A stretch of 64,000 bases of DNA from a candidate division WOR-3 bacterium (GCA_026986775.1 JALSNX010000004.1:69622-133621); one strand, 5' to 3'; positions 3,314-43,490 are shown, counted from the first letter of the stretch. Numbers and translations: made by a program. The notes: a model not told the origin generated them from the letters alone.

Positions 3314-3386
3314 AATAAAATAATTATAATGTGAGTTTCACAAATAGGCAATATAGATTCGGAAGGCAGAATTTGTGGTATATATT

Positions 3387-4570: not shown

Positions 4571-5059
4571 TCAGGTGGCTGTTCTGGTTAAAATATAGTA
4601 TATTATGTCAAAAGTGGTGAGTACTCCTTTTACTCGTCTGTCTTCAGAAAGTACTGGTAGAAGGCGAACGTTGTGTTTTTTCAGGATATCATATGCCTTC
4701 TGTAATGGTTCATTTTCGTAAACAAAAGGAAATTCTGTACGCATTATATCTTTCACTTTAGTGTTGAGGAGGGATTCTCTTGATAGTTTAATATCAAAAA
4801 TATCTTTTTCCTGCTCCTCGTAAATTCTTTCCCATGCATGTAAAATTCCCCTGTATTTTTCAAAGGTTTGTTCGTATGGATAAAAAACCTTGAATACATC
4901 GCTCAGAGATACAAGGCCTTTTATTATGCCATTTTTTACAACAGGGAAGCTCTGATAATTGGTTTTTCGTGCAAGATGAAGTAATTCCATTAAGGGGGTT
5001 AAAACATTTACTACAACTACACCTCTGGAGGCCACATCAATTACAGGTATATTTTTCAT
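4571..5059 (-). CDS. CBS-domain pair protein, likely partner of the antiporter
   Basis: Two CBS-like motifs (VKDIMRTEFPFV..., HNVRLLPVLSEDRRVKGVLTTFDII). Start chosen at the internal MKNIP, since the track start lies in AT-rich leader. Its stop abuts the antiporter start. Confidence 0.6.
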   Translation of the reverse strand: MKNIPVIDVASRGVVVVNVLTPLMELLHLARKTNYQSFPVVKNGIIKGLVSLSDVFKVFYPYEQTFEKYRGILHAWERIYEEQEKDIFDIKLSRESLLNTKVKDIMRTEFPFVYENEPLQKAYDILKKHNVRLLPVLSEDRRVKGVLTTFDIIYYILTRTAT

Positions 5060-9647: not shown

Positions 9648-9758
9648 ATATTTAAAGATAAGGCAAAATACACAAAAAACAAATATATTCAGTCAATTAT
9701 ACGGTCTGTTTGAACTTACTGATGATTTCCATTATTATTTATACAGAAAGGAGGTAAT

Positions 9759-27949: not shown

Positions 27950-28064
27950 ATCCTCCTTATTGTATATTTAGAATTATCAGGCAAATCTGAAAGATACGCA
28001 ACGATTGCCCGAATAGAAAAACTTTCAACCATCCCCTGAATATGCACACGAAGTGTTCCAGTTT

Positions 28065-28081
28065 TTACATACTGTGCACAA
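28065..28081 (+). promoter_or_regulatory. 7-3-7 palindrome TGCACAA-TTT-TTGTGCA (NtrC-like operator/enhancer half-site pair)
   Basis: Perfect inverted repeat. Matches the NtrC consensus TGCACCA-N3-TGGTGCA at 15/17 positions. About 18 bp upstream of the sigma-54 -24 element. Confidence 0.5.
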
Positions 28082-28096
28082 TTTTTGTGCATATTA

Positions 28097-28113
28097 AGGG
28101 CTTTTTCTGGCAT
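28097..28113 (+). promoter_or_regulatory. sigma-54 (-24/-12) promoter CTGGCAT-N5-TTGCA
   Basis: GG at 28099-28100 and GC at 28111-28112 with exact 12-nt offset, matching TGGCAY-N5-TTGCW. About 38 nt upstream of the 28152 start. Confidence 0.55.
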
Positions 28114-28151
28114 AAATGTTGCAACATTGTAGGTGAAAAAGGAGGAATAAG

Positions 28152-28925
28152 ATGAAGGTATTGAAGATGGTCTTTATAGCAGGGGTAATAGGGTTTCTTG
28201 GGTGTCACAGGACAACCTATCCACTCCTTCCACCATCTGATGTGGAGAGCATAAGCTCTGACAATGAAATTATACTTCTGTGGTCAGATGTTGATAATCC
28301 CCATGTTGTCTCCTACAGGATATACAGAAGTGACAGGCCATACGGTTATTTTGAGTTAATAGACGAGGTTACCACAAACTCCTATGTTGACAGGGATGTG
28401 GTAAATGGAACAACATACTATTATGCACTATCAAGTGTTGACGAGTATGGAAATGAAAGCGACCTCACATCCTATCCCATATTTGATACACCGAGACCAG
28501 AAAGGCATAATCAGAGGGTCTTTTCATATTCTTACTCCCATGATACTCTTGGATATTCAGGATACCTTCTTTCCGAATTTACGCCTGTCAGAATGGATGA
28601 AGGGGATTTCTACTTTACCTATGAAAACGGCGTGCCCATGATAATCTGTGCTCCATCCACATACATACAGGACCTTGGTGAAACAGAGGACTTAACGGAT
28701 ATTAACTGGGCACCTGAAGATGGATGGACACAGGGGAGAGTTCAGGCTTTTTCAGGTCATTCCTATGTTATATGGACACAGGATAACCACTTTGCTCAGA
28801 TAAGGATACTGAGCATTACAGATGAATATATGCTCTTTGATGTTGCATACCAGACTGACCCCGGCAATCATGAACTTTCAATAAGTAAAAGCAAAACACT
28901 TATAATCAGGAAAACAGGGAGGTGA
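28152..28925 (+). CDS. lipoprotein with fibronectin type III-like domain
   Basis: Signal peptide with lipobox FLGC. FN3-like block VVSYRIYRSD...NGTTYYYALSSVDEYGNES. GGAGG Shine-Dalgarno. Confidence 0.7.
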   Translation: MKVLKMVFIAGVIGFLGCHRTTYPLLPPSDVESISSDNEIILLWSDVDNPHVVSYRIYRSDRPYGYFELIDEVTTNSYVDRDVVNGTTYYYALSSVDEYGNESDLTSYPIFDTPRPERHNQRVFSYSYSHDTLGYSGYLLSEFTPVRMDEGDFYFTYENGVPMIICAPSTYIQDLGETEDLTDINWAPEDGWTQGRVQAFSGHSYVIWTQDNHFAQIRILSITDEYMLFDVAYQTDPGNHELSISKSKTLIIRKTGR

Positions 28926-28928
28926 GTT

Positions 28929-30494
28929 ATGTTCTGGACTATTTTACTTGGACTTTCGCTCTTTTCCTATGAAGGGAACGTGGCGAGGGTAAGAACAGTG
29001 TACGGCGATGCAATGATATTGCCGTACGGGGCTGATGACTGGGAGTATCTCTTCAGAAACGATGTTATTACAGAAGGTGACGTGGTAAAAACTCTTGAGG
29101 ATTCAAGACTGGTGTTTACTTTTGGAAGAGGCAATGTTGTCTCTATGGGTGAGGATACAAAGGTTGAGGTCAATGCTCTTGATGATCATTTTTCTTTAAG
29201 ATTGCAGAGAGGGAAAATAAGGGTTATGTCAAGAGATGCTGAAGGTGCTGTTGATATTATGAGCACAGAGGTCTATGTGTATTCCTACAGTACAGTAAGA
29301 TTCCAGCGGCACGGAGCAATGGCAAAGGTTTCGGTAATAAGGGGCGAGGCTGATGTGGAAGGTGAAATTGTAAGAGCAGGTGAGATGGCAAGGATTTATC
29401 CAGATGGCAGAATTGTTGTAAGGAGAGAGTTTCATCACGACGATTTTGACAGATGGGCTTCAGGGTATGAAAGGCAGTACATAGTGATAAGAGAGGTAAG
29501 ATACGTTCCCGATGATATTTACATAGGCGTATATGACCTTGATAATTACGGACACTGGAGATACATAAGAGGATACGGCTGGGTCTGGATACCCGATGTT
29601 GGTCCGGACTGGAGACCCTATTATTACGGTCACTGGGTTTTCAGGGTGCGTTTTGGCTGGGTATGGGTCTCCTATGAAGAATGGGGTTGGGTGCCATATC
29701 ATTACGGTAGATGGGCATGGGTTTCAGGTGTCGGCTGGGTCTGGGTTCCGGGCTCTGAGTGGAGAGGCGCGTGGGTTGTATGGTATGAAGGGCCTTCATG
29801 GGTTTCCTGGGCACCCCTTGACCCATATGGAAACCCCATTGTTTATATAAATTATCGGGGCAGAAGAAGATGGGTGGCACCTGTGGTGGATTATCGCAGT
29901 TTCAGGAAACCTGTTTACAGATACAAACCTCCCAGAAATGGTGTGTATAAAAAGCCCGTTTATAGAACTGTCAATCTCAAACTCAACAAAGTAAATCTTA
30001 AAAAGTACGAAAAGCCCGTAATTTCGGATGTGCCATCCCACATAAAACCCGTATTCAGAGAAGAATGGAAACAGAAGGCAGAGAAAATCATAAAAAACCC
30101 GCAGATTGTCAAAAAACCTGTGTTCAAAGAAAAAGTGGAGAGAAGAAAAGATTACAGCATAAAAGTGGATAGGAATGTCAGAAAGGACAGAAGAGAACGA
30201 GTGAGAGATGAGGACAGAAATACCAGAGTAAAAATTAAAAATCCAGAAAGAGTCAGGAAAGAAGATAGAAGAAGAAATAAGAAGGATACCGTATTGCGGG
30301 ATTTTTCTAAGGAAAGACGCATTGACAGGGATAAAAGGGACTCAAGAAGAGAAAAAGACACCACGATAAGGAGAAAGCCGCATATACCTCAAAAGAGTAA
30401 AAAGGTCAGGAACAAAAGGAAGAAAGACAGAAAAGATAGAGAGAAAGAAGTTGATTTAATGAAGGTTAAGGTAAATAATAAAATAACGCCATGA
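28929..30494 (+). CDS. FecR-domain protein with three Trp-rich YxGxW...GWVWVP repeats and a ~190-aa polyampholyte (K/R/D/E) tail
   Basis: FecR-like N-domain; repeats YGHWRYIRGYGWVWIPD, YYGHWVFRVRFGWVWVS and HYGRWAWVSGVGWVWVPG. The C-terminal third is almost pure K/R/D/E. GGGAGGTGA Shine-Dalgarno, coupled to the upstream gene. Confidence 0.7.
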   Translation: MFWTILLGLSLFSYEGNVARVRTVYGDAMILPYGADDWEYLFRNDVITEGDVVKTLEDSRLVFTFGRGNVVSMGEDTKVEVNALDDHFSLRLQRGKIRVMSRDAEGAVDIMSTEVYVYSYSTVRFQRHGAMAKVSVIRGEADVEGEIVRAGEMARIYPDGRIVVRREFHHDDFDRWASGYERQYIVIREVRYVPDDIYIGVYDLDNYGHWRYIRGYGWVWIPDVGPDWRPYYYGHWVFRVRFGWVWVSYEEWGWVPYHYGRWAWVSGVGWVWVPGSEWRGAWVVWYEGPSWVSWAPLDPYGNPIVYINYRGRRRWVAPVVDYRSFRKPVYRYKPPRNGVYKKPVYRTVNLKLNKVNLKKYEKPVISDVPSHIKPVFREEWKQKAEKIIKNPQIVKKPVFKEKVERRKDYSIKVDRNVRKDRRERVRDEDRNTRVKIKNPERVRKEDRRRNKKDTVLRDFSKERRIDRDKRDSRREKDTTIRRKPHIPQKSKKVRNKRKKDRKDREKEVDLMKVKVNNKITP

Positions 30495-30703
30495 GGAAGA
30501 TACTGCTTGTTGCGATACTTTTAACTTCCGTGCCCCTTTATGCGGGGCACGGTTCATCAAAACCACGAGATTCAAAAGGTGGCCTTGTAAAAACCGTAAT
30601 AGAACTTTTAAATTCAAAGAGGAAGAAAGACACAGTTAAAAAGAAAAAGAAGAATGACAGAAGGAAGAAAAAGAAAAAGAGCAGGAATAAGAGGACTCGT
30701 TAA
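30491..30703 (+). CDS. small secreted polybasic protein (70 aa)
   Basis: ATGA overlap with the upstream stop (translational coupling). Signal peptide MRKILLVAILLTSVPLYAG, then a Lys/Arg-rich tail. Confidence 0.45.
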   Translation: MRKILLVAILLTSVPLYAGHGSSKPRDSKGGLVKTVIELLNSKRKKDTVKKKKKNDRRKKKKKSRNKRTR

Positions 30704-31112
30704 CTTTACTTTTTTACTGCTAATTTTAGTCTTTACAGGCTGTGGCTCAAGAATGCCACCACCCGGAAAGCCTGACATAGACCCACCAGAGATTAAAATC
30801 ACGTATCCTGCCCCCCAGGATACTGTGAAAGGCACAATCTACATAAAGTATTCCATTAAAGACAAGAGCCCAATTCAATGGATAGGTCTCTATGTAGATG
30901 GCATAAAGCAAATTCTGGACTCTATCCTTAGAGATTCTCTATTTTTTAAAAGTGACACCCTGTATGACGGCGTTCATAAAATAATGCTGAAGGCAAAGGA
31001 CAAATGGGACAATACAGGACAATCAAATGTGGTTCAGGTTGTAACCCTTAATGGCAATAAAAAGGAAGAAAAAGATGAAAGAATGGATAGAGAGCATAAG
31101 GGAGTTAGGTAA
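30654..31112 (+). CDS. lipoprotein (Ig-like/beta-sandwich predicted)
   Basis: Basic n-region, h-region LLLILVF and lipobox FTGC. Overlaps the previous small gene out of frame. Confidence 0.5.
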   Translation: MTEGRKRKRAGIRGLVNFTFLLLILVFTGCGSRMPPPGKPDIDPPEIKITYPAPQDTVKGTIYIKYSIKDKSPIQWIGLYVDGIKQILDSILRDSLFFKSDTLYDGVHKIMLKAKDKWDNTGQSNVVQVVTLNGNKKEEKDERMDREHKGVR

Positions 31113-31383
31113 AAGAGCAGAAAAAGAGTACGAGGAAGGAGATTTTGTTGACCTGTGCATAATCGGAAGAAAGATGTCAGAACATCTTGCGATGCTGATA
31201 GAAGATAATGGCATTGAAGAAGACATATCCGTAATAAGGGAGTTTTTTGCCAGGTATATCGGAGAAGAGGATATGTTCAAACCCTATCTCGCTCAGTTAT
31301 GGGGAGGCATACCTGATGAGGACACTGGAAAAAGGTGTATGGAGTTTATAGGGAAAATCATGGAGATTATTGAAAAATTTTGA
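31075..31383 (+). CDS. small acidic cytoplasmic hypothetical protein
   Basis: Start chosen at MKEWIES, preceded by AAGGAAGAAAAAGATG; last gene of the co-oriented run. Confidence 0.4.
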   Translation: MKEWIESIRELGKRAEKEYEEGDFVDLCIIGRKMSEHLAMLIEDNGIEEDISVIREFFARYIGEEDMFKPYLAQLWGGIPDEDTGKRCMEFIGKIMEIIEKF

Positions 31384-31462
31384 CTTATGAAAGAAGAAAA
31401 AGCGCCGTGGCAATTTTTTATCTAAAAACAATCTTACTGAAAGAAAATTTTTGAAAATAAAT

Positions 31463-31491
31463 TTGACTTTTTGTGTTCCTCGCTGTATATT
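31463..31491 (+). promoter_or_regulatory. near-consensus sigma-70 promoter TTGACT-N17-TATATT
   Basis: Exact 17-nt spacer. Sits at the left edge of the AT-rich island, upstream of a 57-codon ORF and the methyltransferase. Confidence 0.4.
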
Positions 31492-31909
31492 ATTAAAAGT
31501 GAGGGTAAAGTGTGATAAACCCTATCAATTGCAGAATAATATGAATTTATACGAAAGAGAGTAAAGAAATAATGACATATCATGATGCTTCAAACTCTTA
31601 TCAATATGCATTAAGAGATAGATACACTTTGTTATCCGGAACAGGTTTAACGATTTTGAGAGAATATCGGGAAAGGTATCATCCGAAAAAGTGGTTATTT
31701 GAAGGGGCGAAAGAAGGAGATGAAAATAATGATATTTTATGAGAGTCTAACGTATTCAGGCAGATGCAGTTTATCCGGATGCAGTTCGGAAATCACTCCA
31801 CAGAAGCATTATATACGACCCCGTAGTTCGGATATAACCTAGTTAGGCGTAATCGGGCGGTGTGGCCAAATCTACACTTATAAACTCATATGAGGGAGGT
31901 GTGATAACA

Positions 31910-32824
31910 ATGAGAATAAAAAGGATTTATAAGTGGTTCCTTTGGCAACTTTACAGAAAATCGTTCTCGTTTTGGCAAAAGTTGGGCATTCATATAACAC
32001 CTAATCATTACTATTTTCCTATTCCAGACACAAGAACCCTGAAGGATGATTTATGGCAGAAAGAATCTGAACTTGTTGGCATTAACATTAATGAACAGGG
32101 ACAACTAAACCTCCTTTCTATCTTTTCTTCCAAATTTAAAGAAGAATATGAAAGATTCCCCAGAAGTAAGACTTCTGTCCCATATCAGTATTATGTAAAT
32201 AATGGCAAATTTGAATCTGTCGATGGTGAAATTTTATATTGTATGATCCGATATTTTAAGCCAAAAAAGATTTTTGAAATAGGCTTAGGCTATTCAACTT
32301 ATTTATCTGCTCAAGCAATTCTAAAGAATAAAGAAGAAGATAGTGGTTATGAATGTGAATTGGTAGCAATTGATCCATATCCAAATGATATTCTAAGGGC
32401 CGGCTTTCCGGGTATGTCCAAGCTAATACCTAAAAAAGTCCAAGATATTCCTTTATCAGAATTTAAGAAACTAACAAAGAATGATATTCTTTTCATTGAT
32501 TCAAGTCATGTCTTAAAAATTGGAAGTGATGTTCAATATGAATACCTTGAAATACTCCCAAGACTTAACAAAGGAGTAATTGTTCATATTCATGATATGT
32601 TTTTACCAGCAGAATATCCTAAAGATTGGGTTTTGAAATACTTCAGATTTTGGAATGAACAATACTTAGTTCAAGCATTTTTGACTTTTAATGATCACTT
32701 TGAGGTATTATGGGCCGGAAGTTATATGCACTTAAAACATCCTGACAAACTAGAAGAGGCTTTCAGTTCGTACAAAAGAACTGAAAGATGGCCAGGAAGT
32801 TTTTGGATAAGAAAGATAAAATGA
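31910..32824 (+). CDS. class I SAM-dependent methyltransferase (TylF/MycF / Methyltransf_24-like)
   Basis: GGGAGGTG Shine-Dalgarno 7 nt before ATG at 31910. SAM motif FEIGLGYSTYLSAQAI, acidic/His residues (FIDSSHV, VHIHDMF). Locally AT-rich codon usage. Confidence 0.75.
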   Translation: MRIKRIYKWFLWQLYRKSFSFWQKLGIHITPNHYYFPIPDTRTLKDDLWQKESELVGININEQGQLNLLSIFSSKFKEEYERFPRSKTSVPYQYYVNNGKFESVDGEILYCMIRYFKPKKIFEIGLGYSTYLSAQAILKNKEEDSGYECELVAIDPYPNDILRAGFPGMSKLIPKKVQDIPLSEFKKLTKNDILFIDSSHVLKIGSDVQYEYLEILPRLNKGVIVHIHDMFLPAEYPKDWVLKYFRFWNEQYLVQAFLTFNDHFEVLWAGSYMHLKHPDKLEEAFSSYKRTERWPGSFWIRKIK

Positions 32825-33550
32825 CGTCGCACCGCCCGACTCTCCGTCACTTACGCTCACTTCGGGGCTTATGTTCCCGCCTAACAGGTGTGTATGCGGT
32901 TTCACTCCCTACGGTAGCTACTCCCAAATTGCGTCGCTTCGCTCCGCAACTTCGCATACGCTCGTAATGTTAAGTGAAACTTACGATTTTACTCGGCAAA
33001 GCTTAGATTAAAAGTATAACAGTGATATTTGTGGCTTACGAGTATTATCTAATAGGAGCTATAGTGAATAAGTTATTGTATATTTGGTTTAATTTCACCA
33101 CATAACCGCAAGCCTTTTACGCTCTATTTGTTAGCATCTAAATATACATCTCTCAAAGCAGCTCACCCCAATTTGCGGATGAAAAAATCCATTTGCAAAA
33201 ATTTTTTGGGTCTCTTCTATCAGAAGAGTCAAATAGAATTTGAAAAATGGGGTTGTTAGTATGTTCTCGTCATAGTTTCATGTTAGTATTTCCACGAATC
33301 TCTTTACAGCTGCTGGTTTGAGTGCTTTAAATGAGTTGTTATTTCAGATGATGGAAGGTTCAATTTCTAATCCTCCACCGGCAAGTTCTACTATGGATTG
33401 GAACATATACTGGCGTATGGTAGCAGAGTATCTGAGAGACATCGGTTTTACATCGCCTCCACCATTTTGTCCTGAGCCTTCTGATAATACATACTGGTGG
33501 TGGTATGGACAGCACGGGTAATTTAAAATTTATAAAAGGGAGTAAATAAC

Positions 33551-33775
33551 ATGGCTGGTGAAGAGTTAAAAAGATTGTACAGAACCTTCTCAATAGTTTT
33601 TGCCATCGTGTTGACAGGCCTTACTGCATGGTGGATATTAAGTGGGGAAACGGGCTTTCTTACCGATTTTTCCATAATATGGTGGGTGTTTCTTTTCTTT
33701 ATGGGAATTGAACATATGGTGGAATGGGCTTTTGGTGGTAAACTTGTTAAGAGTGTGATAGATTTATCAATATAA
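33551..33775 (+). CDS. small membrane protein (74 aa, 2-3 TM)
   Basis: AAAGGGAG Shine-Dalgarno 8 nt upstream of the ATG; hydrophobic helices IVFAIVLTGLTAWWIL and IIWWVFLFFMGI. Confidence 0.4.
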   Translation: MAGEELKRLYRTFSIVFAIVLTGLTAWWILSGETGFLTDFSIIWWVFLFFMGIEHMVEWAFGGKLVKSVIDLSI

Positions 33776-33861
33776 CGCTTCTTCTTATTTTTATATTCCT
33801 GTTATCCACACCATATTTGAAGAAGTTTTTCTTGTGGCGAGCTTATGTGCCATCAGGAAGT

Positions 33862-34074
33862 ATGAATTCGTGTTTAGTTCTCCTGCTGTTTCTTCTTGTT
33901 GTGGTGGTTTATGGGGTACTGTGGATTTCGGTTGCACACCTCCGCATAACCTATCTCAAGCGTTTGGGAAGAGAGATTACGTTTTCAGAAAGACTAAAAA
34001 TTGTCGCTGTGGTTTTAAGTGAATTTGTATTTGTTCTGGTGATGTTAAAGATGATACAGTTTGCATTGTGGTGA
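33862..34074 (+). CDS. small membrane protein (about 70 aa, 2 TM)
   Basis: Internal ATG (MNSCLVLLLFLLVVVVYGVLWI...) followed by a second hydrophobic helix; weak ribosome-binding site. Confidence 0.3.
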   Translation: MNSCLVLLLFLLVVVVYGVLWISVAHLRITYLKRLGREITFSERLKIVAVVLSEFVFVLVMLKMIQFALW

Positions 34075-34268
34075 TTGTTTAACTTTACGAAGTCTAAAAT
34101 GTAAGTTATATTGGAAAATACAGGAAAATCTCTTGTTTTGACTCATATTTTTCCATAAGGAAAGACCTATGGAGTTTCCTTAACACACTCTGTATGAGCA
34201 ATGTCTGCTTTTTCCTGTTCGCATAACCCGAGATTTCTCCTTCTTATTATTTCATAAATTATCAAAAC

Positions 34269-34297
34269 TTGACAAATCCCCCCCCCTGTGTTATAAT
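34269..34297 (+). promoter_or_regulatory. perfect consensus sigma-70 promoter TTGACA-N17-TATAAT with TGn extended -10
   Basis: TTGACA at 34269-34274, exact 17-nt spacer, TGT then TATAAT at 34292-34297. Predicted transcription start is about 34304. Confidence 0.6.
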
Positions 34298-34304
34298 AAA
34301 AATG

Positions 34305-34318
34305 TCACCTGCAGGTGA
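34305..34318 (+). promoter_or_regulatory. 14-bp perfect palindrome TCACCTGCAGGTGA at the predicted +1 (candidate repressor operator)
   Basis: Perfect dyad immediately downstream of the consensus promoter and upstream of the Shine-Dalgarno and ATG at 34348. Confidence 0.5.
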
Positions 34319-34347
34319 TAAAAATAAAACTTAAAAAGGAGGAAGTC

Positions 34348-35280
34348 ATGAAAATGTTCAGGATAGTGTTTCTGGGTATGATTGTGTCTCTATCGTGTTC
34401 AAAGAATATGAAATTGGAGGATGATGCAGTCAGCAGTTTAAAGATTTTGAAAAACATCACGGAAGAATTATCATTTAGTCTGAATCATGGCAAAAGTAGA
34501 ATGTTCATGTTCAATGATTTCAAACTCACGGATATGAAAAATGATAGAAAAATGCCATTGAAAAAGGCGGTGAATATTGGCCTTGTGAGCAGGGATGCAT
34601 ATGATAGATTAAGGGCATTAATGCCAGAAGATAGTTTTGTCATGATAATGTGGGAAAGGTGGTTTAAGGCGTGGAAAGAAGGCAGGGTTGAACCCTATAT
34701 CACTTACGACCCCTTGAAAGATGAAAGAGAGATAAAAAAGATTCCTCTTTACAGGAATGGCGTTATTGAAAAATGGATAGATTTAAGGGATTTTGATAAG
34801 TATCCGGTGATAGTTATTTCACCTGAGTGGTGGGAAGGGGATGAAAGTGCTGAGTATCTTACAGGAGACAAAGGGCCGTTTAAAAATCGTGGTGACTTTA
34901 AGACGTTTTCCAGGCCGTATATATCCCAGATCAAAATTTATGGATGGTATGATGGAAGGAAGAGCTGGACCAATCCGGGATGGAGAATGGAAATATATAC
35001 TATTACTTATCCATTGGTAGCAGATTCATTAAACCATATACAGGAAGATCACAGAGATTTTGATGGTGTAGACGAGGGATACAAAACGTATAATGTGCAT
35101 GGCAATATACACTCAGGTTACAATGGATATGCCAGATTCAGGGTAAAAGTTATGGAGCAAGATGGCGGCCTTAGGTTCAATGATGACTATGTGGGGACTA
35201 TTACCATAAGTGGGTCGTACTGGCACGGTGTAAGAGGGCAAAATGTCTGGGTAAAATGTATAGATTTTTTCTCTCACTGA
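34348..35280 (+). CDS. lipoprotein, hypothetical (about 310 aa)
   Basis: GGAGG Shine-Dalgarno 5 nt before ATG at 34348. Signal peptide MKMFRIVFLGMIVSLSCSK with lipobox. Confidence 0.6.
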   Translation: MKMFRIVFLGMIVSLSCSKNMKLEDDAVSSLKILKNITEELSFSLNHGKSRMFMFNDFKLTDMKNDRKMPLKKAVNIGLVSRDAYDRLRALMPEDSFVMIMWERWFKAWKEGRVEPYITYDPLKDEREIKKIPLYRNGVIEKWIDLRDFDKYPVIVISPEWWEGDESAEYLTGDKGPFKNRGDFKTFSRPYISQIKIYGWYDGRKSWTNPGWRMEIYTITYPLVADSLNHIQEDHRDFDGVDEGYKTYNVHGNIHSGYNGYARFRVKVMEQDGGLRFNDDYVGTITISGSYWHGVRGQNVWVKCIDFFSH

Positions 35281-35281
35281 A

Positions 35282-37123
35282 ATGTTATTGCTATTAATTA
35301 TGATTATCACTCTTCCTGCGGCATTTTTGCCGCAGGAAGATACTGTTAAAGATACTGTTAAGTTTACATATGTATTACCAGAGATAAGCGTTGTATCCAC
35401 AAGTGAGCACCAGCTTGTGGGGCAAGTAAGGATAAAACAAAGGGATATATTAAACACCCCTTCTGCTATACTTCCTGACCCACTCCGATTAATAACAGTA
35501 TTTCCTTTTGTTGATGTAGAGGATGAGTTGTTTCCTGTAAACCTTTATATAAAAGGTGGAAGGCCTGAGGAAAACGCTGTATTTATAGAAGATTTTCCGG
35601 TTATATCTCCATACCACTTTGGATTTACAACCATCCTTCCATTAACGGCAATAGATTATTATGATTTCTATACCCTTGATATGCCACCCTATTTATCAAC
35701 TTCGATGACTTCTGCAATTAATTTCCATCTCGTAACAAAAAGATCTAAGAAGATTTATATTGACCCCACCTCCTCTTTAAGTTTTGCTATGTATAACAAT
35801 AACCTTTTTAAAAGTTTTAGATTTACAACACTATCATTACCCATTATGCTTGCATATAAAATGAAGTATATACAATATTTCTGGGATATTGCTTTAAAAT
35901 ATAAGATGGATAAAAATCGTAATGTAGTATTATTTGCAGGGTATGATAAATACCAAGACTCTTATGTGGAAAATATAGATTACCACAACTTCTCCCTTAC
36001 ACTTGGAGCTCATGTGTCCAGCGTTTCAGGCCTTTATCTTGGCGCTGATTTTTTTATATCACATGACCTCAAGGATACTATGGATTTAGCTCGTTTGAAA
36101 AAAATTATCATTGGTTATACTTTTAAACGTCTGAGAATTTCAGACAGAATTTCGTTGTATTCGGGATTTCAATTTTTAAAACCTATCATAAAACTAAGAA
36201 CACTTAGTGAAACGGATAGTTTATGGATTAAGAGAGTAAACACAGAGCCATATATCAGAACTTATTTTTCTTTTGTTTATACCCCTTTTATGAGTTTGAA
36301 ACTATATTCAGGAGCCAATATATATCTTGATAAAAATAAAAAATTCGCGGTTTTTACGCCAAAAATGAGCTACACTCTTTTAAAACTGGAAGATACCAGC
36401 TTCTTGAAAGTAAGTGCAGGTATAAATTCACAGTTTGAATCAGCAGTAAGCCTTTTGCCTGTGAAAGTAAGATTTAAAAACACATTTCCAATGCAATCAA
36501 TTTATTTGCAGGGCGAATTGTTTGGAAATAAAAGTAATGCTGGTGTATTTTATAGGTACTATCCTTCAATTTATTTTATGAGGGAATGTGCTCATGAATT
36601 TCTGGATGAAGGTGAAAAATATACCGAAGTAATTGACACCCTTGTTTTTGCCCGTAAAAGAGTAATTGGAGCGTATTTATCTTTTCATAAAGATATTAAA
36701 AAATTGAGCCTGTGGGGAGATTTTTCATACATGAAAGCCTCCATCACAGAGAATGAAGGTATTTCATATCAAATGCCTTTTACGTCCGCTTTTTCGGGCA
36801 AATTTTTTGCTCAGTTGCACATAAGTAGAAAGATAGATCTAAGCATTACTGCTATCGGAAGAAGTAATGTGATGCAACCTGTGTTTTATGCATTAAGGGG
36901 AGAAGATATTATAGGTTATAGTAAACCTATTATAAAATCGCTTGGACCCTACTTTAGACTTGATGCAGGTCTCACAATACACATCCGGGTTTTTAAGCGG
37001 AAAGGTTTGCTCAGCACAGGTCTGTACAACATTATTTTTAGAAAACCAGAAGTAAGTGATATTTATGATAAAACATATTTAAAATTTCCAGTACCCTATG
37101 CAGGGCTGGAAGTAAATCTATGA
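35282..37123 (+). CDS. TonB-dependent receptor-like outer-membrane protein (plug-like N-domain plus beta-barrel), divergent
   Basis: N-terminal plug-like block (ILPDPLRLITVFPFVDVED...VNLYIKGGRPEENAVFIEDFPVIS) followed by about 500 aa of alternating beta-strand-like sequence. The C-terminus is atypical (ends NL). Confidence 0.5.
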   Translation: MLLLLIMIITLPAAFLPQEDTVKDTVKFTYVLPEISVVSTSEHQLVGQVRIKQRDILNTPSAILPDPLRLITVFPFVDVEDELFPVNLYIKGGRPEENAVFIEDFPVISPYHFGFTTILPLTAIDYYDFYTLDMPPYLSTSMTSAINFHLVTKRSKKIYIDPTSSLSFAMYNNNLFKSFRFTTLSLPIMLAYKMKYIQYFWDIALKYKMDKNRNVVLFAGYDKYQDSYVENIDYHNFSLTLGAHVSSVSGLYLGADFFISHDLKDTMDLARLKKIIIGYTFKRLRISDRISLYSGFQFLKPIIKLRTLSETDSLWIKRVNTEPYIRTYFSFVYTPFMSLKLYSGANIYLDKNKKFAVFTPKMSYTLLKLEDTSFLKVSAGINSQFESAVSLLPVKVRFKNTFPMQSIYLQGELFGNKSNAGVFYRYYPSIYFMRECAHEFLDEGEKYTEVIDTLVFARKRVIGAYLSFHKDIKKLSLWGDFSYMKASITENEGISYQMPFTSAFSGKFFAQLHISRKIDLSITAIGRSNVMQPVFYALRGEDIIGYSKPIIKSLGPYFRLDAGLTIHIRVFKRKGLLSTGLYNIIFRKPEVSDIYDKTYLKFPVPYAGLEVNL

Positions 37124-37660
37124 ACGGTTATGGAATAGCTGTTGCTGAAAAGAAGGAGAGTTTTAAACTCGGTATTGTAATTATTAAAGAAATGGAGATG
37201 GCAAGGTTTATATGGGAATTAAACATATCCGGGAAAAGGTCATATTGTTGCCTGCCACCGAGGAAGATAATGGCAGTATTTTCAGCAGGGAGAATTTGCA
37301 AAAGATACAATATTTTATGGCGTATTGGTGTACCTCAACTAATCCTGGTTCGCACATTGTAGGTGAAGATGTATAAGGTTTGCCGCAAAGATTTACTTTT
37401 TAAAAGACGGGGTATGGTATTTGCCTATCCCATGTCAGAATCACTTTACAGGAAAAGGACAGATGTAATATTGCAGAATACAGAAGAGGGCTCTTCGTTC
37501 TATATGTGAGGAAAAAGTAATAAAGATTATTATATGTATTACAGGCCTTCCTTTCGGGATTCAATGTTTCAGAGTATACTCTCTTTGGTGGAAAAACACA
37601 TGAATGAACTTAGATATGTTTAAAAACTTTAGAGATGTAACGGGGAGATTTTGAACTGTC

Positions 37661-39421
37661 ATGTGGTTTTTATTATTTATTATCCTAAATGGTGTGGATG
37701 GCGATACGCTTCCCACCTACACATTTGATACGCTCAAGATAAAGGCAAAGCAGGGTTGTTCGTTTACTGGAGAGGTATTTTCCACAAACGACATAAAGAG
37801 ATTCCCGTATTTTCTTGAACCTGATATTACAAGATACATAGAACGCTTACCCGGTGTAATATCAGGAAGTGATTTTGTTTATCCCTCCGGTTTATACATT
37901 AAAGGTGCATCTCCATGGGAAAGCGATTTTTATTTTGACGGTATTCCTGTTATAGCGCCCTTTCATTTTATAAGTATTACAGGAATACCAATAAGCAGTG
38001 CCGAAAGGATAATATATTTTGAGAACTTCCACTCTTTTTCGGTATATGAGACACCTCAGTCTGCCTTCAATATTATTCCTTATTTTCGCGATGGTAAAAA
38101 TGAAATATACCAGAGTTTACTTAACACAACAGTTTCCCTGAATACCGGACATCTTAATTTTACAGGTAGATTCTTTTATCCATCTTTGATTCTTGATATA
38201 CTTAAGAAGAACGATTATTCTCTCTCAACATACGACCTCTTATTTGCCATGAAAGCAAAATCCATGAATGTTTCAGGTTTTTTTATGAGGGAACATATAG
38301 AAAAGAAAGATACCTCTTCAGATAATCTTTTTTCCAGTGGATATTCTCTTGGAGTAAGGGCAGGAATCGGAATTTTTGCTTTTCTATATTCAGAGGCAAA
38401 AAGATATGGAATGGCTGAAAGGGATACTCTTTATAACTATTTTCTTAAAGTTTTTGAGACGCAAATCAAACCGACTAAAAATATTGCCTTCAGAATAAGA
38501 AGGTATGAAGATACTAAAAATTCCCTGAATCTCGCACGAGTATGGTTCGGAAAAGAGATTGAAGAGATGGCGTTTAATACATCTTTCGTGGTCTATTACC
38601 ACAAAAAACATATTTTTCCGTTTCTAAGTGGCGAAATATACAAAAAATTTACTTTTAAGGATAGAGCAAGTGCCAGACTCTCTCTGAGTTTAAGGAGCGA
38701 ATACAAAAGCGGATACGATATGCTGTATGAAGGACCCCTTATACCCTCAAAACCTTTTGCGCCCGATAAGATAATAAGGTCAGATATAAGCCTCAGGAAA
38801 ATTATGAAAAAGGGCACATGGGAAATGAATATGTATTTTTCACACCATTTTAATTACAGATTTTACCATGTTGACAGGTTTATTAGGTTGAGGTCACCGT
38901 TTTCTTTTTTAGAAGGTAATTTCACACGGGAGAGGGATTCTATAAGTTTATGGAGTGGTGCCAAGGATGTGGCAGGGATTAGCCTGAAATTAACATATCT
39001 ACTTTCAAGATACGCCGGATTTGAATTCCTTATCGGTGGTAATATGGTGGTGGTGGTGAATGCACAGGGTTACAGATATTATCCGTCCTATAATACGCCT
39101 TTTAAATTGAATGCAGGGTTGTTTTTCAAAAAGCATGACTTTAGAGCTTCCATGGATGTTTCCTATAATTATGGTGGCTGGTATGCCACGAGGGTAATCA
39201 ATTACAATTTTACACCGGTGATTGAAAACGGGTTTTATTACTATAAACTTCCTTCCGAATTGTGGATATCTTTAGCTTTTTCCAGAAAATTTCCGGTGGG
39301 TAAAAGAGAGGTGGAGGCTGGAATTTCCATGAATAGACTTGGCATAAAAAAGAGTTTTTCATTTTACCTGTTCCCTAAATTGTATAACATTCCATCGTTG
39401 TTTGTTAATATGGAGTTTTAG
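37661..39421 (+). CDS. TonB-dependent receptor-like outer-membrane protein, paralog of 35282..37123
   Basis: Plug-like block (IERLPGVISGSDFVYPSGLYIKGASPWESDFYFDGIPVIAPFHF), beta-strand-rich body and a C-terminal Phe (NMEF). Confidence 0.5.
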   Translation: MWFLLFIILNGVDGDTLPTYTFDTLKIKAKQGCSFTGEVFSTNDIKRFPYFLEPDITRYIERLPGVISGSDFVYPSGLYIKGASPWESDFYFDGIPVIAPFHFISITGIPISSAERIIYFENFHSFSVYETPQSAFNIIPYFRDGKNEIYQSLLNTTVSLNTGHLNFTGRFFYPSLILDILKKNDYSLSTYDLLFAMKAKSMNVSGFFMREHIEKKDTSSDNLFSSGYSLGVRAGIGIFAFLYSEAKRYGMAERDTLYNYFLKVFETQIKPTKNIAFRIRRYEDTKNSLNLARVWFGKEIEEMAFNTSFVVYYHKKHIFPFLSGEIYKKFTFKDRASARLSLSLRSEYKSGYDMLYEGPLIPSKPFAPDKIIRSDISLRKIMKKGTWEMNMYFSHHFNYRFYHVDRFIRLRSPFSFLEGNFTRERDSISLWSGAKDVAGISLKLTYLLSRYAGFEFLIGGNMVVVVNAQGYRYYPSYNTPFKLNAGLFFKKHDFRASMDVSYNYGGWYATRVINYNFTPVIENGFYYYKLPSELWISLAFSRKFPVGKREVEAGISMNRLGIKKSFSFYLFPKLYNIPSLFVNMEF

Positions 39422-39422
39422 A

Positions 39423-40136
39423 ATGAGAAAAGGTATTCTGTTCCTGATAGTTATGCTATTGGCAGGGTGCATGAAGCATGATGTTCCGCCTTATGGTGTT
39501 GTTCTCAGTATTTCGCAGGAAGGTTTGCGGCTCTTTACCAGAGAGCCATCCTTACCTGTAAGATATGACTCGCTTTATACCATGGAAGGCCTGCCCCTGA
39601 ATTTAAATTCTGCTTTTTTAATTTTCAAGGATTTCAACGATACTCTTTACTTCGCAGATAGCGGAAACTTCCTTTTTTTGAATATCTATCCCGAAACTAT
39701 CTATGAAAGGGAGGTTGAACTCAATATATTTACTGAAAACGGCCTTTTGAAAGAAAATTTTAGACTTCCTGAAAAGTTGAATCTTAACTTTGATAAAGAT
39801 ACTCTGTTCATTTCGGATACTCTCCGTTTTAATCGTCGTCTCCTTGAAAATGAGTATTGTGAGGTTGTGTTTACAGCAGGTTCTGATAGTTTTTACGCAA
39901 GTGCAAGGGACAGTGCCGGGCCTTTTGATGGTTTTATTGTTCTGTGCCCGGATAGTTTTTACAGAGTCAATGCTAACGGAAGAACCGAAAGGGGTCTTTC
40001 ACCGGGTATATACGAGTTGAATATAAACTTACATACGGTTTATACAAAACCCTTTACAGATTTTCCCGGTTTTTTATTCTGGGATTTTTACAGGGTGGAA
40101 GAGAAGATTCTGATCGTTGACAAAGAATCCTTTTGA
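39423..40136 (+). CDS. lipoprotein, hypothetical
   Basis: ATG at 39423 gives MRKGILFLIVMLLAGC with lipobox. Overlaps the stop of the upstream receptor-like gene. Confidence 0.55.
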   Translation: MRKGILFLIVMLLAGCMKHDVPPYGVVLSISQEGLRLFTREPSLPVRYDSLYTMEGLPLNLNSAFLIFKDFNDTLYFADSGNFLFLNIYPETIYEREVELNIFTENGLLKENFRLPEKLNLNFDKDTLFISDTLRFNRRLLENEYCEVVFTAGSDSFYASARDSAGPFDGFIVLCPDSFYRVNANGRTERGLSPGIYELNINLHTVYTKPFTDFPGFLFWDFYRVEEKILIVDKESF

Positions 40137-40241
40137 TAATATTTTGTGAATATCAAACCGTTATTATAAGATAGATTTTTCTTGTCATTTCCCATTAAAT
40201 GATTTAAAATATGGATAAGTGCTTTTAAAGGAGGCTAAGTA

Positions 40242-41240
40242 ATGATGATTGTACTGCTCGGATTTTTATTTGGCGTCTTTATAATGCTCTCAGAACTCAA
40301 TAAATTTGATACAATAAGTGGGATGGCTATTTTAAATGATCTAAGAATTGCCAAGGCTCTCCTTGTGGCGATAGGGATAGGCATTATCCTTATATTTTTT
40401 GAGGTTAAATTAAATGTTGCATCCTATCATTTAAAGCCTTTTAATCTGGGTGGAGTTGTTATAGGGGGTATTTTATTTGGAGTTGGCATGGCTATCCTTG
40501 GTTACTGTCCTGGAACCCTGATAATATCAGCAGGCGAAGGCTCGCTTGATGCTATGATTGGAATTGTTGGGGGACTCGTCGGTGGGCTTGTATTTACACT
40601 TTTACTGCCTTTTGTGAAGATTTTTATTGGCCCGCATTTTGGAAAAATCTCAATTTTTACTCTACTTGGGAACAATACTACTTTTACATTCCTTGTTTCT
40701 CTTGTTATATCTCTGTTTATGATCTATTCAGCATTTTTACTGAATAAGAAAGATGAAAATAAGAGTATGGACTGGTTTTATGCCGGACTTTTACTTGGAC
40801 TTCTAAATCCGATTATTTTCCTGAAATTCGTACAAAATAGACCCATAGGAGCTTCAACTGCCTATCCATATATAATAGATCGGCTGTTAGGGTTGACCTC
40901 AAATCCATACTTTTTAAAAATTCAAAAACCTGGTGAATGGGAAGTGCTATTCCTGCTCGGTGCTTTTGTAGCCGGATTTACTTTCTCTATCTTGAGAAGA
41001 AAGTTTGAATTAAAGTTAATTCAGCCACGGTGGGAGAAGTATAAAGGCAACCTGCCATTAAAACGGATTTTTTATGCCTTTGTAGGTGGATTTATCCTTA
41101 TTTTCGGAGCAAGGTTGGCAGGTGGTTGCACCAGTGGTCATATTCTCTCTGGGGGTATGCAACTTTCAATAAGCAGTATAGTTTTTGCTGTATTTGTATT
41201 TCTTAGTCTCGTTATTACAGGAAGGATTTTTTACAGATAA
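40242..41240 (+). CDS. YeeE/YedE-family inner-membrane protein (putative thiosulfate/sulfur-compound transporter)
   Basis: Two pseudo-repeated halves, each with a conserved Cys motif (LGYCPGT and AGGCTSGH); polytopic; AAAGGAGG Shine-Dalgarno. Confidence 0.8.
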   Translation: MMIVLLGFLFGVFIMLSELNKFDTISGMAILNDLRIAKALLVAIGIGIILIFFEVKLNVASYHLKPFNLGGVVIGGILFGVGMAILGYCPGTLIISAGEGSLDAMIGIVGGLVGGLVFTLLLPFVKIFIGPHFGKISIFTLLGNNTTFTFLVSLVISLFMIYSAFLLNKKDENKSMDWFYAGLLLGLLNPIIFLKFVQNRPIGASTAYPYIIDRLLGLTSNPYFLKIQKPGEWEVLFLLGAFVAGFTFSILRRKFELKLIQPRWEKYKGNLPLKRIFYAFVGGFILIFGARLAGGCTSGHILSGGMQLSISSIVFAVFVFLSLVITGRIFYR

Positions 41241-41254
41241 AAGGAGGAGATATT

Positions 41255-42034
41255 ATGCTAAAGGAAAATAGATGGAAAATAATTGTTGGTGTCAGTTTAG
41301 CAGTTGTATCATGGCTAACTCCTGTCCAGGCCATGGCTACTGAGAAAGTCTATGTGTATGGCCCCGGTGGACCATTTCCTGCTGTAAATGAAGTTGCAAA
41401 GGTGTTTTCTAACAGGTATAATGTGGATGTAATTGTTGTAAAAGGTCCAACATCCAGATGGCTGAAAAAAGCACAGGATAATGCTGATATTATTTATAGT
41501 GGAGCAGAGTTTATGATGCAGAATTTCGTATGGCTTATGAAAGGAAAAATAGATGAAAAGACTATACAACCTTTGTATCTCAGACCTTCTGGCATTTTGG
41601 TTAGAAAAGGTAATCCAAGACATATTAAAGGATTTGAAGATTTATTGAAACCGGGTATTAGAGTGATGGTTGTGAATGGTGCGGGACAGATGGGACTATG
41701 GGAGGATATGGCAGGAAAACAGGGAAATATTGAGACTATAAGAGCATTAAGAAAAAATATTGTATACTATGCGCATAATAGTGCTGAGGCAAAGGAAAAA
41801 TGGATAAAGGATACCACAATAGATGCATGGTTAATATGGAATATCTGGCAGGTATCCAACCCTGATATAGCTGATTTTATTGCTGTTTCAGATAAATACG
41901 TAATATACAGGGATTGTGGAGTTGCATTGACATTTAAAGGTGAAAAAAATCCGTTTGCTAAAAAGTTTTATGAATTTCTACAATCAGAAGAGGCAAAGAA
42001 AATTTTTAAAAAATGGGGCTGGATTGTGGAATAG
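41255..42034 (+). CDS. periplasmic substrate-binding protein, ModA/WtpA-like (oxyanion-binding PBP2 fold)
   Basis: Signal peptide, 259 aa, ModA-like pattern (VYVYGPGGPFPAVNEVAKVF...ADIIYSGAEF...GIRVMVVNGAG...). AAGGAGG Shine-Dalgarno. No permease/ATPase genes adjacent. Confidence 0.6.
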   Translation: MLKENRWKIIVGVSLAVVSWLTPVQAMATEKVYVYGPGGPFPAVNEVAKVFSNRYNVDVIVVKGPTSRWLKKAQDNADIIYSGAEFMMQNFVWLMKGKIDEKTIQPLYLRPSGILVRKGNPRHIKGFEDLLKPGIRVMVVNGAGQMGLWEDMAGKQGNIETIRALRKNIVYYAHNSAEAKEKWIKDTTIDAWLIWNIWQVSNPDIADFIAVSDKYVIYRDCGVALTFKGEKNPFAKKFYEFLQSEEAKKIFKKWGWIVE

Positions 42035-42094
42035 GGCAATCTTGGCATATTAGTCTGAAGATAAATCTCTTTATGCCCAATAGTCATTAAATTT

Positions 42095-42122
42095 TTGACA
42101 TTCATTTTGTGTGATTTATACT
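42095..42122 (+). promoter_or_regulatory. sigma-70 promoter TTGACA-N16-TATACT for tRNA-Thr
   Basis: Consensus -35, good -10, about 9 nt before the tRNA 5' end. Confidence 0.45.
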
Positions 42123-42131
42123 ATACTAAAT

Positions 42132-42204
42132 GCTGGCGTAGCTCAATCGGCAGAGCAGCGCATTCGTAATGCGCAGGTTGGCGGTTCAAGTCCGCCCGCC
42201 AGCT
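42132..42204 (+). tRNA. tRNA-Thr (anticodon CGT)
   Basis: Cloverleaf: acceptor GCTGGCG/CGCCAGC, D-arm GCTC..GAGC, anticodon stem GCGCA/TGCGC with loop TTCGTAA, T-arm GGCGG-TTCAAGT-CCGCC; 73 nt, CCA not encoded. Confidence 0.9.
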
Positions 42205-42215
42205 TGTAATATGCT

Positions 42216-43490
42216 ATGCTTATAGAATCTGTCTCCGGTATGAGAGGTATAGTCGGGAAGGATCTTCTTCCCGATGTGGTAGTTGACAGAGTCCTTCGCT
42301 TTGCAGCATTCACCGGAGGCAGAAGGTTCCTTATTGCTCGGGATACGAGAAAGTCCGGTGAGGCCATATCTTCCATTGTAAAAGGTGTGCTCACATTTTA
42401 TGGGATGGATGTCTATGATGCAGGGATAGTTCCCACTCCCACTGCACTTTTTTATGTAAGGGATAGAAATCTTGATGGTGGTTTTATAATAACGGCAAGT
42501 CATAACCCTTCTGAGTATAACGGTATTAAATTTGTAACTGAAGATGGATTGTTTCCTCTGGCATGGGAAAGTAAGTATTATCCTGAATACAGTGGTGCCT
42601 CTGGAAGAGAAATCAATGTCCGTGATGCTGTGGAGGTGCATTTGAATCGTATTCTCAGACACTTTGATGGCCAAAAGAAGAAACTGAGAATCTGTGTGGA
42701 TACAAATGGAGGTGCTGCCTTTTTCGCACTGCCTGAACTTTTAAGAAGAATGGGTCATGATGCGATTACACTGAACAGTGAACCGAGCGGTGTATTTGTT
42801 CACAATCCAGAGCCAAGAAAGGAACATCTTGTTGAACTGGACTATCTTTTAAGAAGTGGGGCATGTGATATTGGGTTTGGCACTGACCCTGATGCGGATA
42901 GACTTATATGCGGGATAAAAGGCATGGGTATTCTGAGCGAGGAATTTACTCTTCCCCTTGCATTATTGGGATACGGAAAGAAGGCAACCAATGTGGTTGT
43001 TAATTATTCAACATCCATGCTGGTTGAGTTTGCTGCAGAGAAACTTGGTGCCCGGGTTATAAGAACAAAGGTTGGTGAGGCCAATGTGGTGAGTAAAATG
43101 AAAGAAGTTGATGCCTTTCTTGGGGGTGAAGGAAATGGTGGTGTTATTTTCTCCCATATAAACTCTGCGAGGGATTCGCTTGTGGGAGCGTTTTATATAA
43201 CAAAACTCGCTGAAAATGAGGATATTGGTGAAATTGTATCGGAATTTCCAGGATATTATCTTGCGAAGGAAAAAATAGGTATTGATGACAATGTGGACCT
43301 TTCGGTTCTGGAAAGCAAAATCAAGGCTGATTTTGTAAGTAAGGACGATGGTTTTTATTTTAAGTGGAAAAATGCATGGTTGCACGTAAGAAAGTCAAAT
43401 ACAGAGCCCATTATAAGGATTTACGCTGAAGCCGATAGTGAAGACAGGGCAAGAGAACTTGTGAGAAAAGCCATTTCCATTATAGCGTAA
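42216..43490 (+). CDS. phosphohexomutase (GlmM/ManB family phosphoglucosamine/phosphomanno-mutase)
   Basis: Active-site serine motif ITASHNPSEYNGIKF, the metal-binding DPDADR loop and GEGNGG. The true start may be the internal MRGIVG Met, since the track start abuts the tRNA. Confidence 0.85.
   Translation: MLIESVSGMRGIVGKDLLPDVVVDRVLRFAAFTGGRRFLIARDTRKSGEAISSIVKGVLTFYGMDVYDAGIVPTPTALFYVRDRNLDGGFIITASHNPSEYNGIKFVTEDGLFPLAWESKYYPEYSGASGREINVRDAVEVHLNRILRHFDGQKKKLRICVDTNGGAAFFALPELLRRMGHDAITLNSEPSGVFVHNPEPRKEHLVELDYLLRSGACDIGFGTDPDADRLICGIKGMGILSEEFTLPLALLGYGKKATNVVVNYSTSMLVEFAAEKLGARVIRTKVGEANVVSKMKEVDAFLGGEGNGGVIFSHINSARDSLVGAFYITKLAENEDIGEIVSEFPGYYLAKEKIGIDDNVDLSVLESKIKADFVSKDDGFYFKWKNAWLHVRKSNTEPIIRIYAEADSEDRARELVRKAISIIA

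Follow-up and report, generated by a model that had tools for sequence, protein, structure and literature searches.

Positions 31384 to 34310 of a 64,000-nt stretch of DNA from a candidate division WOR-3 bacterium (GCA_026986775.1, JALSNX010000004.1:69622-133621; the whole stretch is called the window here) were set apart in an initial annotation, made from the sequence alone, as an AT-rich accessory island. In order along the forward strand, this region includes a promoter-like site, a relic of a tyrosine recombinase gene, an intact gene for an S-adenosylmethionine (SAM)-dependent methyltransferase bracketed by inverted repeats, an imperfect palindrome resembling the attC site of an integron, fragments of two further genes, and two small open reading frames (ORFs) with two hydrophobic segments each. 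The region is probably a mosaic, the left end of a 10.7-kb insertion, in which the sole intact unit is an integron-type gene cassette carrying the methyltransferase gene, the rest being debris or native genes. The features named in the initial annotation are present at the coordinates it gave, but its boundaries and most of its labels do not stand.

The insertion was delimited by comparison with three related genomes (loci L097, L099, and L100; ~68–72% nt identity), reached via homologues of the 110-aa protein whose gene ends with a stop codon at 31383. The gene order in all three is DegT, a 257-aa protein, DUF6600, a 69-aa protein, Big_7, and a 105-aa orthologue of the 110-aa protein; tRNA-Thr(CGT) follows within ~45 nt, and then PGM and SprA_N. 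BLAST colinearity between the window and these genomes skips from ~31379 to ~42101. Because the relatives run from the 110-aa gene to tRNA-Thr and on to PGM, the whole of 31384 to ~42090 is an insertion (31384–42087, with no strand assigned, between the 110-aa gene and the tRNA-Thr promoter; 10.7 kb), and the region first set apart is its left quarter. The right boundary once placed at 34310 is not an island edge, as synteny with the three genomes carries the insertion to ~42090. The drop in GC content that was noted is real but modest, at 0.359 for the flagged stretch against a window mean of 0.396, and it is not confined to 31384–34310: the value is 0.36 across all of 31384–42090. Within the flagged stretch it is 0.32 in the methyltransferase gene and 0.56 in the segment directly 3' of it.

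Absence from three relatives, a position directly upstream of tRNA-Thr, and deviant GC content mark the block as a tRNA-associated genomic island. The 10.7-kb block yielded neither an integrase nor a direct repeat of a tRNA fragment, only a short AAATTTT(T)GAC at both ends (31374–31384 and 42089–42099), which might stem from target duplication or mark a place of homologous exchange. In the relatives, the stop codon of the 105-aa gene falls within the -35 box (TTGAAA) of the tRNA-Thr promoter.

A closer relative (GCA_054027995.1, 97% nt identity) is represented by two contigs. One (L094) matches the window at 33929–40132 and 42088–47238, without 40133–42087; the other (L101) matches at 33271–33546 only, plus a second copy of an operon promoter discussed below, and upstream of the shared part it carries ThyX, Maf, and other genes not in the window. 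What is shared with this relative, from 33271 on, begins with a truncated gene, which the membrane-protein ORFs follow, so that 31384–33270, the cassette included, is specific to the window's genome. An independent Logan contig (L001) covers 27978–33321 at 100% identity, and the left junction is therefore not peculiar to one assembly. The block missing from L094 is a clean 1,955 bp directly upstream of the tRNA-Thr promoter, a second strain-level insertion or deletion within the insertion; its genes encode a TsuA/YedE-like sulphur transporter (40242–41240) and an SBP_bac_11 protein (41255–42034). With three separate structural differences from close and distant relatives within 11 kb, the stretch before tRNA-Thr looks like a hotspot of recombination in this lineage.

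The methyltransferase gene (31910–32824, forward strand) is intact, with GAGGGAGG 9 nt upstream of its ATG, and encodes a class I SAM-dependent enzyme of 304 aa. The original assignment is upheld by a match to Pfam Methyltransf_24 (E = 2.8e-12); no other Pfam, NCBIfam, or PHROGs family was found in 31384–34310. Ratios of nonsynonymous to synonymous substitution rates (dN/dS) are 0.12–0.18 against the copies in loci L015, L032, and L030, and the gene is under purifying selection. It has thousands of homologues, the best 120 of which are 69–85% identical. Among these 120 are metagenome-assembled genomes (MAGs) of Bacteroidales, Deltaproteobacteria, Syntrophales, Aquificaceae, Phycisphaerae, and Cyanobacteriota on the bacterial side, and of Methanomassiliicoccales, Korarchaeota, Altiarchaeota, and Bathyarchaeia on the archaeal side, with bacterial and archaeal homologues at 70–77% aa identity. 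An AlphaFold model (predicted local distance difference test score, pLDDT, of 80) has cation-dependent O-methyltransferases as its nearest folds in the PDB; Foldseek matches include CCoAOMT/COMT, the sugar 3-O-methyltransferase MeT1, and CmcI (E = 1e-6 to 1e-4), and the PDB holds no relative at the sequence level. Many homologues lie within polysaccharide clusters, among glycosyltransferases, Wzt/ABC transporters, and Polysacc_synt proteins, and from these gene neighbourhoods our best guess is that the enzyme is a sugar or glycan O-methyltransferase. As the related genomes do without it, it does not belong to a conserved pathway of this lineage.

An integron cassette is a promoterless circular unit, which the integrase inserts or excises via the folded bottom strand of attC, recombining at G|TT. 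The methyltransferase gene occupies a unit of this outline (1,126 nt; 31844–32969, forward strand), extending from the TT of GTTAGGC to the G of GTTAAGT. Its closest copies (75–85% aa identity) are in L015 (of which L002–L004 are duplicates), L027, L028, L032, and L056, in unrelated contexts. Homology with L015, L027, L028, and L032 starts exactly at G|TTAGGCG, with unrelated flanks upstream; the start motif in the closest copies is GTTAG(G/A/T)CG. Past the stop codon the closest copies all read AAATGAC..GC..GCCTAAC, followed by an imperfect palindrome and a shared 3' motif (..AACTTC..stem..AAC|GTT), and beyond the 3' GTT the sequences diverge. There is thus a G|TT boundary on both sides, with L015 having CTT at the 3' position. 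The 5' end of the unit, GTTAGGCG (31843–31850), is complementary at all eight positions to CGCCTAAC (32878–32885), which contains the R'' box of the palindrome; the equivalent figures are 7/7 in L015 and 6/7 in both L027 and L028. A cassette opened at G|TT is expected to show such complementarity.

Recombination at G|TT by an integron integrase would explain why the unit starts with TTAGGCG, why this start pairs perfectly with the R'' box CGCCTAA close to the other end, and why homology with related cassettes stops exactly at both GTTs. The cassette would then consist of a short 5' leader with its own Shine-Dalgarno sequence, the methyltransferase gene, and the attC-like imperfect palindrome as its end. 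As it is promoterless, its expression, if any, must start from an upstream promoter. The earlier suggestion of a small horizontally acquired cargo element is thus right for the methyltransferase: the cassette-like unit is absent from the relatives, and its closest homologues are in unrelated contexts. Contigs of ~1.1 kb carrying methyltransferase homologues were also considered as evidence of cassette size, but were dropped, since the median contig of the collection is ~1 kb anyway. In the metagenomic contig L027, upstream of the methyltransferase cassette (~830–1080), a GTTAAGC box precedes the next attC-like site by ~250 nt; this suggests an extra short cassette, and hence what may be a real multi-attC array.

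The palindrome at the 3' end (32879–32975, forward strand) has the layout GCCTAAC-N4-GTGTATGCG...CGCATACGC-N7-GTTAAGT, in which GCCTAAC (32879–32885) is the R'' box, GTGTATGCG (32890–32898) and CGCATACGC (32953–32961) are the L'' and L' boxes, pairing as a 9-bp L stem, and GTTAAGT (32969–32975) is the R' box. The R boxes are spaced within the 50–150 nt that define an attC site. A scan for the canonical pattern (RYYYAAC...GTTRRRY, with an inner-stem score of at least 10 and the expectation taken from 200 shuffles) picked out this site and no other in the window, where 0.05 would be expected; among the other fetched loci (707 kb), only the L027 site 3' of the methyltransferase gene scores equally. 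When the sites are rebuilt in circular-cassette form, the bottom strands form R and L stems separated by an asymmetric internal loop, plus a variable loop, with z scores of -2.7 for the window, -5.0 for L015, and -2.1 for L028; L032 folds poorly. The L stems occupy the same position but are unrelated in sequence (GTGTATGCG/CGCATACGC in the window, TGGTATATCTG/CAGATATACCA in L015). There is no T run after the hairpin, which is therefore not an intrinsic terminator.

The perfect 10-bp inverted repeat first noticed around the gene is exact, with TCGGGCGGTG at 31853–31862 and its complement CACCGCCCGA at 32830–32839 (both given on the forward strand); these are the only two copies in the 64 kb, with 0.02 expected. 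The left arm lies 3 nt inside the R' box GTTAGGCG, and the right arm is followed by ~38 extra nt and then R''. In the homologues, by a five-sequence alignment, TTGCGG is found 3–4 nt inside the R' box and CCGCAA 4 nt before R''. Both arms thus differ together between the window (TCGGGCGGTG/CACCGCCCGA) and the homologues (TTGCGG/CCGCAA), with pairing kept. The repeat is probably a second, nested layer of the cassette's terminal palindrome, and from its position just outside the R boxes it would lengthen the stem in the excised circle.

Perfect inverted repeats bracketing a gene, with a promoter-like site upstream and the relic of a tyrosine recombinase ~100 nt away in the same orientation, might also be taken for an invertible switch, in which the recombinase flips the gene between GTTAGGCG/CGCCTAAC and TCGGGCGGTG/CACCGCCCGA relative to the promoter at 31463. 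This is very unlikely. The recombinase is a dead fragment of 35 codons; a single orientation is seen in both assemblies of the locus (the window and Logan contig L001), and the gene has the same orientation to the GTTAG boundary in L015, L027, L028, and L032; and the 3' hairpin runs ~95 nt past the repeat, which an inversion site would not need. In unrelated contexts, moreover, the gene is still accompanied by the repeats, and homology ends at GTT, which argues for mobility rather than local inversion.

Upstream of the cassette, the sole promoter candidate is TTGACT-N17-TATATT (31463–31491, forward strand; putative function), with 10 of 12 matches to consensus. The near-consensus promoter initially said to open the island is thus present, but such sites are not above chance in number (15, against 11.9 ± 3 in shuffled sequence). 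Next is the recombinase relic (31614–31718, forward strand), 35 internal codons within an ORF at 31572–31742. By tblastn, 281 plasmid records match it in annotated tyrosine-type recombinase/integrase genes (60% identity over 35 aa, E = 1e-4), and it aligns to residues 105–139 of the 221-aa protein WP_015060916.1 (E = 2.6e-6), a TnpF-like recombinase of the IS91-associated type. No other piece of such a gene, nor of an IS91 transposase, was found in the window. A Pfam search of all three forward frames of 31384–31862 gave no match, leaving the plasmid tblastn result as the support for the relic, and the 56-aa ORF had only spurious T-cell-receptor matches in the PDB. Between the relic and the cassette, GTCTAAC and GTTAGGC stand 104 nt apart (31746–31849, forward strand) with direct repeats GCAGTTCGGA and GTAGTTCGGA between them. 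This pair may be read as a decayed attC site. It resembles by eye the attC-like sites upstream in L027 and L028; BLAST found nothing significant on the same strand.

Several observations weigh against an integron-type cassette. An IntI1 probe detected no integron integrase in the window or in 101 related loci, and the recombinase relic next to the cassette is of a non-IntI type. In the ORFs of 22.9–43.5 kb, Pfam detected no tyrosine recombinase, only housekeeping families (PBP1, RF-1, DegT, DUF6600/FecR, Big_7, Sulf_transp, SBP, PGM). Of the parts of a complete integron (intI, attI, and Pc), the 35-codon TnpF-like relic is the sole trace, and recombination by IntI is accordingly deduced from anatomy. 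In its integrated form, with a hybrid R' box, the attC-like site folds no better than shuffled sequences (z = -0.1 to -0.8), a signal emerging only once the cassette's own R' box is put back, and a relaxed AAC...GTT hairpin scan is non-specific (68 matches, against ~66 in shuffled sequence); the case is therefore carried by the consensus boxes and the comparative boundaries. There is a single canonical attC site, and the upstream box pair pairs poorly (DNA fold z = -0.18). The attC sites of L028 and L032, the latter being the poor folder, have non-consensus R' boxes, and the ~38-nt insertion in the window's attC region is missing from the homologues.

Some of these points would suit an acquired unit whose palindromes are not attC sites but a terminator, a hairpin like those of repetitive extragenic palindromes (REP) or miniature inverted-repeat transposable elements (MITE), or the ends used in single-strand transposition of the IS91/TnpF type or an IS200/IS605-like type: no IntI was found, the neighbouring relic is of a TnpF-like kind found beside IS91-family elements, the relaxed hairpin criteria are unspecific, and several homologous sites deviate from GTTRRRY. 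We consider this unlikely. In L015, L027, L028, and L032 the cassette has no TnpF-like or IS91 remnant with it, and the missing T run speaks against a terminator. The G|TT ends, the split R''/R' complementarity, the L stems that vary in sequence while keeping their position, and the variable central loop together make up the anatomy of an integron cassette, and the canonical form of that combination is unlikely to arise by chance. As an integron-type cassette with no integrase present, the unit is stranded, whether as an orphan attC or as what is left of a degraded array.

The 500 bp that follow the methyltransferase gene were at first described as noncoding, but hold the attC-like site and a pseudogene relic. 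Some 180 nt between these (32976–33158) matched nothing by BLAST or tblastx, either in the fetched loci or in the rest of the window, and no known RNA was found in the region by Rfam scans (gathering thresholds and permissive) or a tRNA scan. The relic (33159–33259, forward strand), recognized by BLAST, alignment, and blastx, is what is left of the 3' end of an SBP_bac_11 gene (the last ~30 codons), now frameshifted and interrupted by stops, and is 78% identical at the nt level to the window's own SBP gene at 41944–42021 (E = 3e-10). The GGAT-N6-ATCC dyad reported earlier is indeed present at 33178–33191, where it is a remnant of the codons for G-E-K-N-P; both it and one copy of TGTTAGTAT fall inside the relic. 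The three reported copies of TGTTAGYAT were also found, at 33129, 33254, and 33281, with four in the window against 1.3 expected. The trio falls within 160 nt, and two of its members flank the junction between the SBP relic and the gene remnant described next; the paralogous copy (42020–42054) and the relative's gene are without the motif, whose GTTAG core resembles the cassette boundary motif.

The 67-, 74-, and 85-aa ORFs of the initial annotation are all present. The first of these, described there as a Cys/Trp-rich peptide with a gene of its own, is the tail of a truncated gene, without its own Shine-Dalgarno sequence: 33271–33521 (forward strand) is a 3' remnant, ~80 codons long, of a gene for ~217 aa, with an in-frame TAG at 33273. 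In a profile-free search of 1.8 billion representative proteins, the 67-aa ORF had one meaningful match, the C-terminus of a protein (P0131) whose residues 151–184 are 82% identical to the first 34 residues of the ORF. This protein is encoded in contig L101 of the 97% relative as a 184-aa gene; L101 5799–6073 is 93.8% identical to window 33271–33546, and the gene's first ~135 codons are found in L101 only. A 1-nt indel in the relative ends the ORF 33 codons earlier, and three of the four substitutions in the tail are synonymous in the window's frame, suggesting that the true gene length is ~217 aa. The 3' flank of the window's SBP gene (42035–42073) aligns without indels to 33260–33306 and holds ~13 codons of the ~217-aa gene (H.S...NLF); the junction of SBP 3' end and codon ~137 is thus common to both copies, implying that duplication or recombination took place at an earlier time.

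The remaining two small ORFs, each with two hydrophobic segments, follow 3' of the truncated gene. The 74-aa ORF (33551–33775, forward strand) has a GGGAG Shine-Dalgarno sequence 9 nt upstream of its ATG, as first described; it lies between the two contigs of the close relative, L101 covering the region up to 33546 and L094 from 33929. The 3' part of the 85-aa ORF (33817–34074, forward strand) is in L094 (33929–34074, two substitutions). NCBIfam and PHROGs offer no family for the small ORFs or for the 109- and 184-aa genes of L101, nor does Pfam for the 74- and 85-aa ORFs, and no paralogy of these two to proteins of the downstream operon was found.

The layout had been compared to a locus for a bacteriocin or other ribosomally synthesized and post-translationally modified peptide (RiPP), with a Trp/Cys-rich precursor, a tailoring methyltransferase, and two-transmembrane-segment proteins for immunity or export. 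The ORFs do come in that order, the Shine-Dalgarno sequence of the 74-aa ORF is strong, and a distant homologue of the downstream operon lies near a RiPP-like cluster in another genome (see below), as a matter of adjacency only. The supposed precursor, however, corresponds to the C-terminal third of a longer protein (~217 aa), for which the 97% relative has the complete gene; the window's copy is cut at 33271, its frame meets the TAG at 33273, and no Shine-Dalgarno sequence precedes its internal starts. The methyltransferase, for its part, has boundaries of its own as a separate mobile unit, and its family is one of glycan clusters. No RiPP enzyme, leader-recognition domain, or transporter family was found in or beside the flagged region, and the RiPP proposal, largely refuted by these results, has next to no probability left. 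The debris around the cassette would instead comprise the TnpF-like relic, the decayed attC-like site, the 3' relic of the SBP gene, and the 3' third of the ~217-aa gene, to which the two small membrane-protein genes are added.

The element at 34269–34318 (forward strand) is part of the downstream operon rather than of the flagged island. It consists of a promoter (TTGACA-N17-TATAAT, 34269–34297; 12 of 12 matches) and a palindrome, TCACCTGCAGGTGA. The promoter element is kept in L095, from a relative whose aa identity is 49%, and L101 has a second copy of it at 4874–5019, which is 85% identical to window 34247–34391 and includes the promoter, the TCACCTGCAGGTGA palindrome, the Shine-Dalgarno sequence, and the first codons; this duplicate promoter/leader module precedes the 109-aa and 184/217-aa genes. 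The operon itself (34315–40136; 321, 613, 586, and 244 aa) has no Pfam, NCBIfam, or PHROGs match. Its 321-aa protein has just three homologues among 5.8 billion proteins, and a weak paralogy links the 613- and 586-aa proteins (26% identity, E = 2e-10). In L096 (43% aa identity for the 321-aa protein), a homologous operon is preceded, 6–9 kb upstream, by genes encoding YcaO, a nitroreductase-family dehydrogenase, and a methyltransferase. This set (776–3877) resembles a thiazole/oxazole-type RiPP cluster, linked to the operon by adjacency only; no precursor gene was found in 9221–10001.

The methyltransferase cassette raises a broader, quite tentative possibility, one that is doubtful on present evidence: a family of glycan-tailoring enzymes may move between Archaea and Bacteria as an integron cassette, captured in this case at a non-integron hotspot beside tRNA-Thr, and the nested repeat may be a conserved second layer of the attC stem, reaching into the 5' leader and outside the standard model. 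The exceptional conservation of the family above 70% aa identity over bacterial and archaeal phyla fits the role proposed for cassettes in cross-domain transfer. More immediately, the locus is an example of an orphan integron-type cassette with an O-methyltransferase of surface-glycan type in an uncultivated bacterium; a false RiPP lead is removed, and an "island" drawn from raw sequence resolves into one live mobile unit and dead fragments.

Among known systems, the TnpF-like recombinases (WP_015060916.1, beside ISVsa3 and tet(X3)) are represented by 35 aa at 60% identity, in a KDRYTxLS...LRxY...PKxxLFEG segment; ~16% of the protein is left in the window, and the catalytic residues are absent. 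The methyltransferase is predicted to share the fold of CCoAOMT/COMT, CmcI, and mycobacterial MeT1, but at just 12–19% sequence identity, and it differs from the cation-dependent O-methyltransferases in an extra N-terminal region of ~110 residues. As in the cross-domain cassettes that have been described (PMC9668308), its family is common to bacterial and archaeal MAGs, at 70–77% aa identity; here, however, most archaeal copies are in glycan clusters without attC, and the cassette-borne copies are bacterial or unassigned.

Groups of clustered attC sites that have no integron integrase (CALINs) are common, Archaea included, and most archaeal integrons are CALINs (Ghaly et al., 2022, PMC9668308). 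The present locus is like most CALINs in having no integrase nearby (PMC9024848, PMC9668308), but has one canonical attC (32879–32975) and one decayed, poorly pairing box pair (31746–31849). IntegronFinder 2 by default requires at least two attC sites for a CALIN, and leaves single-attC elements unreported, although these can be genuine (PMC9024848); in its terms the locus is at best a single-attC element. Compared with a textbook integron cassette, it has two additions, the nested 10-bp inverted repeat and ~38 nt inserted between stop codon and R'', and it sits in a chromosomal scar beside tRNA-Thr rather than in an array. Like such a cassette, it has one promoterless ORF with a short leader, a palindrome with RYYYAAC/GTTRRRY boxes and inner L stems, G|TT ends, a 5' end that complements R'', and an attC that diverges in sequence while keeping its structure: a known kind of mobile unit, plus debris.

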